A DNA stretch of 64,000 nucleotides from Candidatus Ryanbacteria bacterium CG10_big_fil_rev_8_21_14_0_10_43_42 (GTDB taxonomy: Bacteria > Patescibacteriota > Minisyncoccia > Ryanbacterales > 2-02-FULL-48-12): assembly GCA_002793915.1 (NCBI GenBank), contig PFEF01000005.1, positions 83,108 through 147,107 of the forward strand. Reading direction: 5' to 3'. Positions within the stretch are counted from its first letter, which is position 1; every line of letters begins with the position of its first letter. Below are positions 42,701 to 48,700 of the stretch, in pieces. A program made the position numbers.

Positions 42701-45700
42701 AACTATTGGATGCGGGAGAAAAAACAATAAAACCTATTATGGTAAAACCGCAAGGAATTGATGCTACGAGTATTGTGAGCGGATTGGCGGGTGTGTTTTC
42801 CGGTTTTGCACCGCATGTTAATCGAATAGCAATGGAATTTGGTGTAGACCCAAGAGATATATTTGTGGAACTTGGTAAAAGAAATGTTGTTGCTGGTCAG
42901 GAAGATATTATTGTTGACGTTGCAGTGGAGTTATCTAATAAAAAATGAAAGTTGCTGATTACATAATTGATTTTTTTGAGAAAAAAGGCGTTACAAATGC
43001 GTTTGTGGTTGTTGGTGGTCAGGCAATGTTTCTTGATGATGCGGTGTATAGGAGTAAGAAAATTAAGCCGATTTTCACTCATCACGAACAGGCAGCTGGC
43101 ATGGCTGCTGATGCATGTAGTCGGTTAAAAAACAAGCCCGCCATTGCTTTAGTTACAGCTGGTCCCGGAGCTATAAATGTAGTAAATGGTGTGATTGGTG
43201 GATGGGTTGATTCTTCACCCATGATTATTTTATCAGGACAAACAAATTTATCTTTTATCAAATATCAAGAGGAGTCTGGTATTCGGCAGTTTGGTGTGCA
43301 GGGTATCAATGTAAGGCCGTTAGTCGAACGATCAGTTAAATTTTTTGTTACCGTCGATGATCCGAAGAAAATTTTATATTATTTACAAAAGGCATATTAT
43401 CTTGCCACAAGCGGCAGACCCGGACCTGTATGGTTAGATGTACCATTAAATATTCAGGGAGCGCCTGTACCCGATGGTCCTTTATTAGAATTTACGGAAC
43501 AAGTAGATGACGATATCCCGCAGGATATAAACGAAAAACTGAAAGATGCAATGCATTTATTACAGTATGCTAAACGGCCACTTATTTTAGTTGGGCAGGG
43601 CGTACGACTTGGTAATGCTATAGAAGAACTTAATATGTTTATAGACCGTGTTCGTTTGCCGGTCCTTACGGCCCGTTTAGCAATAGATGTAATACAAAGC
43701 AATCATCCGTTATATGTGGGTAGACCTGGTACTTATGGAGAGCGGGCGGCAAATTTTGCCATTCAGAATGCTGATGTAATTTTATCGGTGGGATGTCGGC
43801 TCGGCACATCGTTAATTGGTCATGATGCAAAGGATTTTGGGAGAAATGCAAAAAAGATTGTCATAGATATAGATCAAAAAGAGTTAGATAAACCGGGAGT
43901 TGATATTGCCGTAAAAATACGCACTACAGCTAAAGATTTTTTTCAGAAAGCGCTTGCGGAGTGTGAGGGTTTAAAATTGCCTGATTGGAAAGAATGGATT
44001 TCCATATGTAAAGAATGGAGAAAAACATATCCTGTTGTACTGTCTTCATATAAAGATGAAAAACCCGTTAATTCTTACTATTTTATAGATAGATTATCTG
44101 CCGTTGCTGAAAAGGATGATTGGGTTTTGGTTGATACGGGATCTTGTTTTCATGTGGCATCTCAAGCATGGAGCGTAAAAGATGGTCAGCGATTTTTAAC
44201 GACGGGGGGAATTTCCACTATGGGGTATTGGGTTGCAGGAATTGGTGCTTGCATGGCTCGTGATAAAAAACGGGTAATCGTAATAACAGGAGATGGAAGT
44301 TTGCAAATGAATCTTCAAGAATTTGCGACAGTCAAGCAGAATGAATTACCGTTAAAGGTGTTTATATTTAATAATAACGGCTATTTACTAATGCGGATTA
44401 TGCAGACCAATTTTATGGACAAGCGATTTATGGGTGAAAGCCCGAAAACTGGTTTATGGTGCCCTGATTCATTGAAAATTGCCGAAGCATACGGTATACG
44501 GGGAATAAGAATAGATTCGACTAAGGGGATTGATGAAAAAATTAAAGAGATTCTTGATTATCCAGGTCCGGTCATTTGTGATGTGATGACACCTGATTGG
44601 CAGATTTTAGCGCCCCGCACGATGTCTGATAAGACGCCTGAAGGAAAGTTGGTGGCGCGGCCATATGAAGATATGTATCCGTTTTTAGATCGTGATGAAC
44701 TGAAACGGCAGATGATTGCGGAGTTACCGGATGCATAGTAGTTATGAATATGAAGATATTACTTTTGGGTGGTTCCGGATTTATCGGAAGGAACATTATC
44801 GAATTATTGGGTGAGAAATACGATATCACAGCGCCAACACATCGGGAGTTGGATCTTTTAAATGCGGATGCTGTACAATCATTTTTGAATAAAAAAAGAT
44901 ACGATAGAGTAATTTATGCGGTGAACGTGGGAGGGAAGCGTAACCAAAAGGCACTTACCGGCGTGTATGATGCAAATTACCGTATGTTTTTGAATGTCGC
45001 AGAACAGGGTGAGCGGTTCGGACGCATGATTTTTTTAGGTTCTGGGGCGGAATATGGAAAACAGCGTGATATTGTTATGATAAAAGAGGAAGATTTTGGT
45101 ACCATTCAGCCTCTTGATGATTATGGTAGATCAAAATATTCTATTTCGGAATATATTAATGAACATGAAAATATAATCAATTTGCGGTGTTTCGCAGTTT
45201 TTGGAAAGTACGAGGATTATAAGGTTCGCTTTATTTCGAATGCGATTTGCCGCGCTTTGTTTGGATTACCGATTACTATGCATAGGAATGTGAAATTTGA
45301 CTATCTGTATATTCTTGACTTGGTAAAAATCATAGAATATTTTATTGTCAATCAACCCATGTTAATATTTTATAATGTGGGTTTTGGAAAACCTATTGAG
45401 CTTACGGAACTTGCCCAAATAGTAAAACAAGCAACATTGAACGACGCGCGAATTGAGATAGAGCAGCTAGGGTATAGTAATGAGTATACGTGTGATACAA
45501 GTCAACTGAAAGCGGAAATAGGAGATATGGCGCTCACTTCGTATGAACAAGCGATTAGTGAAATGATCGAATACTATAAGAACATTCTTCCTATTATGCA
45601 ATATAAAGACTTGGAAGAATAATATTTATATATGCATTTTTATGAGTATCAGGGAAAAGAGTTATTTGATGCATATCGTATACCTGCACCGCGTGGCGTG

Positions 45701-48700
45701 CTGGTGCGGGATGCGGAGGACGTAATTCCATTTTCGGGTCCGTATGTAGTCAAAGCACAGGTTCTTTTTGGAAGCCGAAAAGACGCCGGCGGTATTCTTT
45801 TTGCTTCTACGGCAAGCGCGGCAAAAGAACATGTGCGTACGCTTTTGGGAAAAAACCTCCAGGGAGAATATGTTGCTAGTGTGTTGATAGAAGAAAAAGT
45901 TCAATCGCCGATTGAATATTATACCTCCTTTAGTTATGATACTGTTACGCGTGGACCCATTCTTATGCTTTCTTTGCGAGGCGGATCTCACTTAACGGAG
46001 ACCGTTACATTTCCTGTTGATCCTACCTTATCAAAAGATTCAATCATACTTTTTTTAAAGAAGGCACTCTTCCGAAGCGGCTTTTCTTCTTTGGATATTG
46101 CTCCATTGACCGTCTTTATTTCGCGTCTCTGGGAATTATTTGTTAATGAGCACGCCCTCTTGGTTGAAATTAATCCTATTTTAAAAATATCTTCAAATCA
46201 ATTTGTTGCAGGAGATGCAAAAATAATATTAGATAATGAAAAGGTAAAACCGAATGAGCGACCTTTTTATAATTTAAAGGGAGATATAGCCATATTGGCG
46301 TCCGGCGGAGGTGCGTCACTTCTTAATATAGATACCCTCATGGCATACGGTGGTAAGCCGGCAAATTATACCGAGTATTCAGGAAATCCTCCTGCTGACA
46401 TAGTTCGGGACCTTACTGTCCGTGTTCTTTCACAAAAAAACTTAAAAGGATGTTGGGTGGTCGGCGGTACGGCAAATTTTACGGATATATATGAAACCAT
46501 GCGCGGCTTTTTAGATGGTTTGCGTTGTATTAAACCGCAACCGCAATACCCTATCGTAATTAGGCGCGACGGTCCGCGATTTAACGAAGCGGCAGCGATG
46601 TTGCGTGCGGCTGCGAAAGAAAATAAGTACAATCTTCATATTTTTGGAAGTGAAACGCCTATGTCTGAATCTGCCAATATTATGGTTGATTTGGCATATA
46701 AAAAGTAAATATGGCTATTCTAGTTACAGAAAAAACGAAAGTGCTTATCCAGGGGATTACGGGGAAAGAAGGATTAAAGGCGCTGGAAGGTATGCGTAAT
46801 TACGGTACGGATGTTCTTGCCGGCGTTACTCCCGGAAAAGGGGGTGGGTATATTAGTAATGTGCCCGTGTATAATACGGTGCGCGAGGCGATGCAAGATC
46901 ACCCGTCTATTAACGCAACATTATTGGTAATGCCAGCTCTGGCAGTGAAAGCCGCCGCATACGAAGCAATTCAGGAAAAAATACCGCTACTGAATATATT
47001 AACGGAACATGTTTCCGTCCGTGATACTGCGCTAATTATAGCGCAAGCCAGAAAAGATGGTGTGAACGTAATTGGTCCGTCTTCAGTTGGCATCATATCT
47101 CCGGGTATTGGTAAAATGGGAAGTATTGGCGGAGAAAATCCTGGGCGTATGTTCCGGCCGGGACCTGTTGGTATAATTTCAAAAAGCGGCGGTATGACTT
47201 CTGAAATTGCCATTACCTTAAATAGGTCTGGACTTGGCCAGAGCACAGTGCTTGGCATTGGCGGAGATCAATTAATTGGATTTGACTTTATAGATGCGAT
47301 GAAATTGTTCGAGAAGGATGAGAAAACGCATGCAATAGTAATTTTTGGAGAAGTTGGCGGTACGTATGAGGAGCAGCTTGCAGAATTTATACAAAAAGAA
47401 AGATTTAAAAAACCCATTATAGCTATTATAGCGGGAAGATTTACTTCCGCATTTCCTTCTGGTACCGTATTTGGTCACGCGGGGACTATTGTTATGCGTA
47501 ATCGTGGAGGATATGAATCAAAAGTGAGCGCCCTTCAAAAAGCAGGTGTTATGGTAGTAAATACCTTGGAGGAAATACCGTTATTGCTCAAAAAAAAGTT
47601 CTATGAGAGGATGGGATAATGAAATGGAGAACGGCAATTAGCACACAAAAAGACAAGGAATTATACGTACGCGGATCACGTCTTACGGATCTTATTAAGA
47701 AAGCAAGTTTTATCGAATCTATTTTTCTTATATTACGCGGGCAATTTCCGAAAAAAAAAGAAGCAAAAATACTGGAAGCTGTTTTTGTCTCTATGATTGA
47801 ACATGGCGTTGAGGTTCCATCTGCTTTTATTGCGCGGAGTGTTGCCTCAACAGGAAATTCACCACATACTGCGTTAGCCGCTGGTATTCTCGCAATGGGA
47901 GATTTTCATGGCGGCGCAATAGAACAAGCGGCTCGATATATTCAATCAAAAGAGACGCCGCGCGCTGTCGTTACTCAGGCACTTAAAAATAAAGAGCGCT
48001 TGCCGGGTTATGGCCATAAAGTGTATAAGGCGGGGGATCCGCGAGTCCGTGCTCTTTTAGAAAAGACGCAAGAGTTGCAATTATCCCAAACATACATAAA
48101 GCGCGCTCGTGCGATAGAGCGTGAGTTAAAGCGTGCGAGCGGCATTAGCGTACCTTTGAATATTGACGGAGCGGTTGCTGCCGTCATATCAGAACTTGGG
48201 TTTGATTGGCAGTTAGGAAAATCTTTTTTTGTTTTGGGCCGCCTGCCCGGGCTTATTGCGCACGTTGCGGAAGAACAAAAAAATGAAAAACCATATCGTC
48301 GCCTCGATTCCGATGATATTGAATATATCGGCCCGCCTTTTTAATCTCATTCTTACCGACCCTCTCTCGACAAAAGAACGGCAATTGTCTTAAGCGCAAT
48401 TGTCAGGTCCAACACAAGAGATCTATTTTTTATGTAATAAAGATCGTATTGCATCTTTTGAGGAGCATCTTCCACAGAAGCATCGTTTTCCATATTTACC
48501 TGTGCCCAACCGGTAATGCCGGGGGTTACTAAGAGACGCATGTCATAAAAGGGGATTTTTTCACGAAGCTCGGCTACATAATGTGGACGCTCTGGACGAG
48601 GACCGATAAGCGACATATCACCCTTGAGAACATTCCATATTTGGGGAAGTTCGTCCAGATAAAACATACGAAGAAATGTACCGAATGGATATACGCGCGG

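Follow-up and report, generated by a model that had tools for sequence, protein, structure and literature searches.

An unfused relative of ATP-citrate lyase, predicted to cleave citrate, in an erwiniose-type sugar operon of a Candidatus Ryanbacteria genome

A stretch of 64,000 nucleotides (nt) from contig PFEF01000005.1 of Candidatus Ryanbacteria bacterium CG10_big_fil_rev_8_21_14_0_10_43_42 (hereafter, the window) carries, at 45632-48344 on the + strand, three consecutive genes for a beta (large) subunit, an alpha (small) subunit and a lyase. Judged by its sequence, this trio is an unfused relative of ATP-citrate lyase (ACL) and not an ordinary succinyl-CoA synthetase (SucCD) accompanied by a stray citrate synthase. 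The trio stands at the end of a seven-gene run, and its function is probably the ATP-dependent cleavage of scavenged citrate, which would supply acetyl-CoA, and possibly pyruvate via oxaloacetate, for the synthesis of an acyl-branched sugar of the cell surface.

The gene for the ACL-type or citryl-CoA synthetase (CCS)-type beta subunit spans 45632-46708 (358 amino acids), that for the CCS-type alpha subunit 46711-47619 (302 amino acids) and that for the citryl-CoA lyase (CCL) 47619-48344 (241 amino acids). These are the positions at which an earlier reading of this DNA (the original prediction) had placed three open reading frames (ORFs), and the motifs that it quoted were recovered: FGHAG at 47470-47484, with His256, DFHGGA at 47901-47918 and GYGHKVY...DPR at 48006-48044. 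The beta, alpha and lyase genes are translationally coupled. Only the two nucleotides 'at' separate the beta stop codon TAA from the ATG of alpha, whose own stop shares one base with the start of the lyase (TAATG, 47617-47621), and a Shine-Dalgarno-like GAGAGG lies upstream of the lyase start. Loss of the stop together with a one-base frame shift at this second junction would recreate an alpha-CCL fusion of the AclA type.

The trio and the four genes before it, all on the + strand, form one operon-like run (41066-48344) with gaps of -10 to +9 nt. The scan for promoters and terminators between 39800 and 50000 gave counts that were not above those of shuffled sequence and provided no usable operon boundaries, and the tRNA and Rfam scans of the window gave no matches. 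Exact copies of the lyase, with its neighbours unchanged, were present on 9 independent metagenome contigs; these copies and the very small E-values rule out chance ORFs. The proteins belong to a metagenome-assembled groundwater member of Candidatus Ryanbacteria, in the candidate phyla radiation (CPR, or Patescibacteria), in agreement with the small-genome host that had been proposed. In public records the lyase is named 'citryl-CoA lyase', beta 'hypothetical protein', alpha 'succinate--CoA ligase subunit alpha' and the product of 42945-44738 'acetolactate synthase'. The absence of other tricarboxylic acid (TCA) cycle genes nearby also held, none being found among the annotated ORFs of the window (20810-24484 and several small ORFs were not scanned). 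The acylating aldehyde dehydrogenase that had been described as adjacent to the trio (41066-41947) does belong to the same operon, but it lies four genes upstream and is not directly next to it.

The lyase corresponds only to the catalytic C-terminal half of the citrate-synthase fold, as its match to PF00285 (Citrate_synt, E 5.9e-45) covers profile positions 162-355 of 357. It scored 271.9 bits against the NCBIfam model NF004869 for citryl-CoA lyase (cutoff 212), and its top PDB match was the CCL of Hydrogenobacter thermophilus (6hxp_A, E 4.2e-70), with all citrate synthases far behind. Mean identity to the CCLs of Aquificota was ~46%. Residues H97, H133, D183, R142, R208 and R228 were invariant in a 25-sequence alignment that included the Hydrogenobacter CCL. 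The first three, located in DFHGGA, in GYGHKVY (48006-48026) and in NIDGA (48159-48173), are presumably the counterparts of the catalytic H274, H320 and D375 of citrate synthase, and we take the arginines to be those that bind oxaloacetate. The enzyme is therefore expected from its sequence to resemble CCL in function, that is, it is predicted to cleave citryl-CoA to acetyl-CoA and oxaloacetate. In a neighbour-joining tree, a long branch set the CCL-like sequences from CPR, DPANN, Aquificota, Zixibacteria and Acidobacteria apart from the citrate synthase of Bacillus subtilis, and 22 of the 23 CPR sequences fell in one clade. The deep branching among CPR, DPANN and Aquificota had bootstrap values near 0, and no direction of transfer was inferred from it. 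The remaining CPR sequence, probably from Woykebacteria (L046), paired with a sequence from Nanoarchaeia (L086) instead of with the other 22, which hints at a transfer between CPR and DPANN.

The beta subunit combines an ATP-grasp_2 domain (PF08442, E 1.6e-28) with the domain PF16114, 'ATP citrate lyase citrate-binding' (E 3.9e-23), and has no SucC C-terminal domain. Its best PDB match was the large subunit of the Hydrogenobacter CCS (6hxq_B, 145 bits), followed by Thermus SucC (110 bits) and Chlorobium AclB (104 bits), and it reached 149.5 bits against the SucC equivalog model, which has a cutoff of 370. The AlphaFold2 model of beta had a pLDDT of 90.2. When this model was compared with the PDB by Foldseek, succinyl-CoA synthetase (SCS) beta, CCS and ACL chains were all obtained with TM-scores of 0.6-0.75, so that the fold cannot separate these families. 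Among the comparisons made for beta, the families were told apart at the level of motifs alone.

One important question is which acid this enzyme activates, since the original prediction had considered the substrate not predictable from the sequence. The C-terminal domain was aligned with those of human ACLY (3mwd_A), Chlorobium AclB (6hxj_A) and Hydrogenobacter CcsA (6hxq_B), and the pocket loops of these proteins have identical counterparts in beta: SGGGAS at 46301-46318 (human G281-G283), YSG at 46376-46384 (G309), ANFT at 46472-46483 (N346-F347-T348) and RRDGP at 46562-46576 (R379). The human residues G281-283, G309, N346, T348 and R379 are those that we take to contact citrate in 3MWD. 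These motifs were invariant in a 45-sequence alignment (A2), and they were kept in nearly all of the 25 CPR and DPANN homologs, the exceptions being ASFT in two Nomurabacteria and GGGGS in DPANN, the latter as in CcsA. The acid-site motifs of Thermus SucC are different (GAGLV, IGG, GGIT and RVAGT). Since the pocket motifs of the three citrate enzymes aligned with it are kept in beta, the beta/alpha pair is predicted to act on citrate, and the earlier reservation can be set aside to that extent.

Another acid, such as malate, 2-methylcitrate, citramalate or some other hydroxy-polycarboxylate, would give a different pair of acyl-CoA and keto acid. This is very improbable, although citrate is itself a prediction from the sequence; beta is, moreover, about 70 amino acids shorter than the Hydrogenobacter CcsA, and related ligases (SCS, malate thiokinase) have only subtly different folds and are not separated by Foldseek. 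Against a different acid, all the pocket motifs of three proven citrate enzymes are kept, unlike in SucC, the malate--CoA ligase hidden Markov model gave only 73.9 bits (cutoff 604), and the lyase retains every catalytic and oxaloacetate-binding residue of the citrate-synthase type.

The alpha subunit showed the Pfam domains CoA_binding, Ligase_CoA and Succ_CoA_lig, together with the phosphohistidine loop, and its score against the SucD equivalog was 281.6 bits (cutoff 336). Two insertions, one of four residues (SIGGxx) and one of three residues before the GHAG loop, are common to alpha and CcsB and are absent from the three SCS-alpha references; the first of them is found as SIGGENP at 47122-47142. 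In the neighbour-joining tree of this subunit, built with three SCS-alpha references and one CcsB, the SCS-alpha references were split from the CPR, DPANN and CcsB sequences in 100 of 100 bootstraps. These features are suggestive of an alpha subunit of the CcsB type rather than of the SucD type, without settling its assignment.

Relatives of the lyase were searched for in one genome per GTDB species, which gave 483 loci, and the best 80 were kept for the analysis of gene order. Among these 80, all of the sufficiently complete CPR and DPANN loci (25 of 25) had contiguous beta, alpha and CCL genes, whereas the lyase gene of the Aquificota loci has neither of the other two beside it. The order of the genes in CPR and DPANN is the order of the modules in ACL, and the junction between alpha and CCL is the fusion point of AclA. 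The ACL/CCS-type beta family is small, since only 108 clusters were matched at E <= 1e-30 among 1.8 billion proteins clustered at 50%.

These data bear directly on the reading of the trio as an ordinary succinyl-CoA synthetase followed by a truncated, inactive remnant of citrate synthase. The public name of alpha and its top PDB matches, which are SCS-alpha chains, speak for such a reading. It can nevertheless be given next to no credence: beta has PF16114 where SucC has its own C-terminal domain, both subunits score under the SucC and SucD cutoffs, the 241-residue protein has the full length of a CCL, no variation at its catalytic residues and clear identity to the Aquificota enzymes, and the three-gene order is conserved in the 25 loci. 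The combination of SucCD with a pseudo-citrate synthase was consequently rejected on its domains, its cutoffs, the catalytic residues of the lyase and the acid-site motifs.

The arrangement of citryl-CoA synthetase plus citryl-CoA lyase that had been proposed for the trio was supported by the lyase, which lies above the NF004869 cutoff and has the Hydrogenobacter CCL as its best structure, and by the ACL-type citrate domain and the 6hxq_B match of beta, the sub-cutoff SucC and SucD scores of both subunits and the CcsB indels of alpha. The accompanying statement that this layout is otherwise known from Aquificae did not hold, as it is widespread in CPR and DPANN, is described in a 2022 preprint and is partly annotated by NCBI. 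In that preprint, CPR and DPANN sequences labelled as SCS or citrate synthase group with CCS and CCL (10.1101/2022.10.25.513756), and a 2025 survey reported that aclAB is enriched in Saccharimonadia (PMC12577380). No functional study of the CPR/DPANN trio was found in the literature.

Like the CcsA/CcsB and Ccl of Hydrogenobacter and other Aquificota (6HXQ, 6HXP), the window system consists of three separate polypeptides with equal domain content, and it shares with them the citrate-pocket motifs (apart from ANFT, which is ANNT in Hydrogenobacter and ANFT in ACL), the phosphohistidine and catalytic motifs and the alpha indels. It differs from them in the shorter beta subunit (358 against 429 amino acids in Hydrogenobacter CcsA) and in gene order, since in Aquificota ccl lies alone, away from ccsAB, whereas every CPR and DPANN locus examined has the three genes side by side. 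With ACL (AclB/AclA; Chlorobium 6HXJ, Methanothrix 6HXI) and with ACLY, the trio would have in common the overall reaction, and it has the same module order of beta, alpha and CCL and identical ANFT and RRxGP citrate motifs. The proposed role, a supply of acetyl-CoA outside the TCA cycle, is that of the cytosolic eukaryotic ACLY. AclA, however, is a protein of ~600 amino acids in which alpha is fused to CCL; these are separate ORFs in the window and in all the CPR and DPANN loci examined. SucCD shares with the trio its superfamily and fold (Foldseek TM-scores of 0.65-0.75), and alpha resembles the archaeal SCS-alpha about as much as SCS-alphas resemble each other, but the C-terminal domain of beta, the acid-site motifs and the scores of both subunits set the two systems apart. 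The window system has the CCL and CCS large-subunit features that were looked for; it is not a strict ACL, alpha and CCL being unfused, and it is not SucCD. The reductive TCA cycle that surrounds the classical CCS/CCL in Aquificota is absent from the window system, which belongs to a glycan operon with no TCA gene among the annotated ORFs. Since the window of this CPR host shows no TCA cycle among its annotated ORFs, the trio presumably does not serve carbon fixation.

The four genes that precede the trio were then assigned by their family matches. The first gene of the operon (41066-41947, +) encodes an acetylating acetaldehyde dehydrogenase of the DmpF/BphJ/ErwJ type (TIGR03215, 375.2 bits, cutoff 282) and keeps NMVTCGGQA, which we take to be the catalytic-cysteine motif of this enzyme. 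With an overlap of 10 nt, it is followed by the gene for a 4-hydroxy-2-oxovalerate (4-hydroxy-2-oxopentanoate) aldolase of the DmpG/BphI/ErwI type (41938-42948, +), which has the Pfam domains HMGL-like and DmpG_comm, scores 358 bits against TIGR03217 (cutoff 286) and keeps the motif TLRDGSH. The third gene (42945-44738, +) encodes a thiamine diphosphate (ThDP)-dependent carboligase of 597 amino acids that resembles YerE and ErwE. Its best PDB match (379 bits) was 8rph, which corresponds to JanthE, a YerE-like enzyme (PMC12188165), while the best acetohydroxyacid synthase reached 243 bits. Assignment of this protein to the YerE-like class is supported by these scores, and a gamma-hydroxy-2-oxo acid is its putative donor; enzymes of this class have been reviewed (PMC12247030). 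The fourth gene (44744-45622, +) encodes an 'epimerase'-family short-chain dehydrogenase/reductase (SDR) of 292 amino acids (Pfam Epimerase and RmlD_sub_bind), a candidate counterpart of ErwF/YerF that would act on the keto group of the side chain. Its position within the cassette is the same in L007, L088 and L090, and in L008 and L092 it comes after CCL.

A cassette of this kind has been described for the biosynthesis of erwiniose in Pectobacterium atrosepticum (Steitz et al. 2022, PMC9306805). In that scheme, ErwJ converts acetyl-CoA into acetaldehyde, ErwI condenses acetaldehyde with pyruvate to give 4-hydroxy-2-oxopentanoate, ErwE, which refuses pyruvate as donor, couples this compound to CDP-4-keto-3,6-dideoxy-D-glucose, and ErwF reduces the side chain. 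The window resembles it in that enzymes like BphJ (the dehydrogenase), BphI (the aldolase) and YerE (the ThDP enzyme) are encoded together with a reductase, next to candidate genes for a CDP-dideoxy-keto-hexose, a likeness drawn from family matches. No citrate-cleavage module was reported in the erwiniose cluster, whereas in the window and in related CPR lineages the genes of the trio are set among those of the cassette. A catabolic direction of the DmpFG pair, as in the degradation of aromatic compounds, was considered and rejected, because in three phyla the pair lies in a sugar cluster and invariably precedes the gene for a YerE-like enzyme, in accordance with the published anabolic use (PMC9306805).

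Candidate genes for the acceptor sugar lie further upstream. They encode a probable glucose-1-phosphate cytidylyltransferase (30909-31862, +; TIGR02623, 295.3 bits, cutoff 300.25), an NDP-hexose 4,6-dehydratase (35778-36785, +), whose best family is the CDP-glucose 4,6-dehydratase TIGR02622 (203 bits, cutoff 278), and a PMP-dependent 3-dehydrase of the DegT family, similar to RfbH/E1 (38753-39952, +), whose best family is the RfbH model NF011936 (336.8 bits, cutoff 423). In a genome of Lachnospiraceae (L087), the same position of the cassette is taken by a full-scoring RfbH (700 bits). The GTG listed as the start of the cytidylyltransferase gene lies within the preceding PMT_2 gene (29710-31083), with an overlap of 175 nt; since neither the Pfam nor the TIGR match extends upstream of residue 58, the true start is probably near 31080. 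An Old-Yellow-Enzyme flavin oxidoreductase (31859-32902, -) is found among the CDP-dideoxyhexose genes, where an E3 reductase of the DdhD type would be expected, and this flavoenzyme may be a non-orthologous replacement of E3.

The trio was found inside the dehydrogenase-aldolase-ThDP-SDR cassette at five loci from four related lineages (the window, L007, L090/L091, L008 and L092), with beta identities to the window of 63-75%. Two gene orders were observed: in one of them the beta, alpha and CCL genes follow the SDR gene, in some cases with a GT2 gene after CCL, and in the other one they are inserted between the ThDP and SDR genes, so that CCL precedes the SDR gene. The cassette also occurs without the trio, in sugar clusters of Lachnospiraceae (L087, 8065-11797) and Magasanikbacteria (L088, 8070-12690). 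The dehydrogenase, aldolase and ThDP genes are 57-68% identical between Ryanbacteria, Magasanikbacteria and Lachnospiraceae, which suggests that the erwiniose-like sugar module has spread horizontally between phyla. Downstream of the cassette, L087 has a GNAT gene and two aminotransferase genes in the place of a reductase. The repeated embedding of the trio, with rearrangement and with overlapping frames, argues for a functional coupling to the cassette in this lineage, although not a universal one.

On this basis, the following route may be proposed for the operon. The beta/alpha heteromer would act as a citryl-CoA synthetase, in which citrate bound in the C-terminal domain of beta would react with ATP and CoA, via phospho-His256, to give citryl-CoA, and the lyase would split this thioester into acetyl-CoA and oxaloacetate. 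From the gene context and the erwiniose scheme, the ErwJ/DmpF-like dehydrogenase would reduce acetyl-CoA to acetaldehyde and free the CoA used by the synthetase, and the ErwI/DmpG-like aldolase would join acetaldehyde and pyruvate into 4-hydroxy-2-oxopentanoate. The ErwE/YerE-like enzyme would then decarboxylate this compound and attach the resulting C4 unit to the CDP-4-keto-dideoxyhexose that the upstream genes would provide, and the SDR would reduce the side chain. The suggestion that the trio provides an acyl-CoA for the aldehyde dehydrogenase is made more specific in this way, since the dehydrogenase matches the acetyl-CoA to acetaldehyde step of erwiniose synthesis (PMC9306805) and the trio is embedded with it in four related lineages. 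More speculatively, the aldolase could also decarboxylate oxaloacetate, giving the pyruvate enolate, and the side chain would then derive from both halves of citrate; class II pyruvate aldolases are able to decarboxylate oxaloacetate via the same enolate (PMC5065237).

The reverse direction, in which acetyl-CoA and oxaloacetate would form citryl-CoA and then citrate and ATP, would save the energy of the thioester or donate a citryl group to a glycan. The reaction of ACL is close to equilibrium and ACL is reported to run oxidatively in some Desulfobacter species, and a glycan island allows unusual substituents. For the window, however, this direction seems highly improbable: no downstream citrate-using gene was found among the annotated ORFs and no acyltransferase lies beside the trio, the operon also encodes an enzyme of the ErwJ type, which in the published pathway uses up acetyl-CoA, and the neighbours of the trio elsewhere are consumers of acetyl-CoA. 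The citryl-like substituent that the original prediction had offered as an option thus found no support in the window.

In order to place the trio in its wider setting, the Pfam families encoded within four genes of it were tallied at 16 other CPR loci. GlmS, with its SIS and GATase domains, was found at 7 of them and in at least three different arrangements; YvcK/CofD, a UDP-GlcNAc-binding protein, and small GNAT acetyltransferases were found at 6 each, and HAD hydrolases at 5; no transporter was prominent among these families. In five loci a GNAT gene comes immediately after CCL, and the loci of the Kaiserbacteria type add genes for DegT, a WbuX N-acetyl-sugar amidotransferase and Gfo/Idh/MocA proteins. 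At ~5-13 kb in each of L011, L012, L015, L016, L019, L027, L029 and L043, the trio stands beside GlmS, a UDP-GlcNAc-binding protein of the YvcK/GlmR type, an HAD hydrolase and a GNAT of ~143 amino acids. Amino-sugar functions and consumers of acetyl-CoA are therefore the recurrent neighbours of the trio in CPR, which fits a role in the supply of acetyl-CoA. Neither this linkage to GlmS, YvcK and GNAT genes nor the presence of the trio in an erwiniose-type branched-sugar operon appears to have been described before.

The same neighbours favour a housekeeping role, in which citrate cleavage would be a general source of acetyl-CoA for the N-acetylation of amino sugars and for UDP-GlcNAc, and its position beside the branched-sugar genes would be incidental in a fluid glycan island. 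The 16 loci just described lie off any Erw-like cassette, and the Magasanikbacteria cassette has no adjacent trio. Even so, we regard this explanation as rather unlikely for the window, since the trio lies within the cassette at five loci of four lineages, in the gap between SDR and glycosyltransferase or in that between ThDP enzyme and SDR, in two orders and with overlapping or nearly abutting frames, and an interleaving of this kind is unlikely to arise by chance.

Several points weigh against the assignment of the trio to citrate cleavage for the branched sugar. Most CPR loci keep the trio away from an Erw-like cassette, and the Magasanikbacteria cassette has no trio beside it, so the coupling is lineage-specific and could reflect drift of gene order within a large glycan island. 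The function of the trio in CPR and DPANN is a prediction by homology, with the citrate contacts presumed for human ACLY in 3MWD as the reference for the pocket. The alpha subunit is closest overall to archaeal SCS-alpha (278 bits with the Aeropyrum protein, against 208 bits with CcsB), in line with its top PDB matches. In the window, the pathway of the acceptor sugar is incomplete, with no E3 reductase found and with three enzymes under their equivalog cutoffs, and no citrate transporter was seen among the top neighbour families of the trio at the 16 CPR loci. Finally, the analysis covered 64 kb of a contig of 524 kb, and other sources of acetyl-CoA may be encoded elsewhere in the genome.

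Citrate cleavage for the branched sugar is, with these points taken into account, still the function that we consider probable. A broader proposal can be advanced only tentatively. According to it, CPR and DPANN organisms without a TCA cycle would use the unfused ACL as their principal route to acetyl-CoA, from citrate of the host or the environment; the Ryanbacteria lineage would channel the whole of citrate into the C4 side chain of a cell-surface sugar, the acetyl half via acetaldehyde and the oxaloacetate half via the aldolase; and the operon would represent a stage of ACL that preceded the fusion.

The operon is part of one very large glycan-biosynthesis island, which extends from position 1 to ~55,000 of the window and includes at least eight glycosyltransferases, at least seven methyltransferases, nucleotide-sugar enzymes and transferases of the PMT_2 type. 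It takes up an unusually large share of a small genome. Other members are a sulfatase-family protein (15215-16744), a sulfotransferase (16790-17710, -), a flippase (17713-18981, -), a GDP-mannose 4,6-dehydratase (19831-20829) and a carbamoyltransferase (25257-27068). A priming polyprenyl-phosphate glycosyl-phosphate transferase (48353-49762, -; Bac_transf; TIGR03025, 324.8 bits, cutoff 295.55) is convergent with CCL and lies 8 nt past the CCL stop. It is followed by two tandem paralogous genes (49857-52103 and 52106-54304) for membrane proteins of ~740 amino acids with a Wzy_C domain (O-antigen ligase/polymerase) and a C-terminal TPR, which are also kept downstream of the operon in L090. Outside the island, at 61532-62434, a protein with a CofE-like F420-0:gamma-glutamyl ligase domain was detected; F420 metabolism is unexpected in CPR.

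The presence of this family in CPR was already known from the 2022 preprint, the lyase already bears its name at NCBI, and the enzymology is the expected one. The comparison also points to a systematic misannotation in CPR, which affects alpha ('succinate--CoA ligase'), beta ('hypothetical protein') and the ThDP enzyme ('acetolactate synthase'). With its seven genes, the operon offers a compact candidate for a route by which citrate could reach an acyl-branched sugar, and it would add a module for precursor supply to the erwiniose scheme. For CPR and DPANN, whose acquisition of acetyl-CoA and uptake of host-derived compounds are poorly understood, the trio gives an answer that can be tested, namely that imported citrate may be converted into acetyl-CoA.

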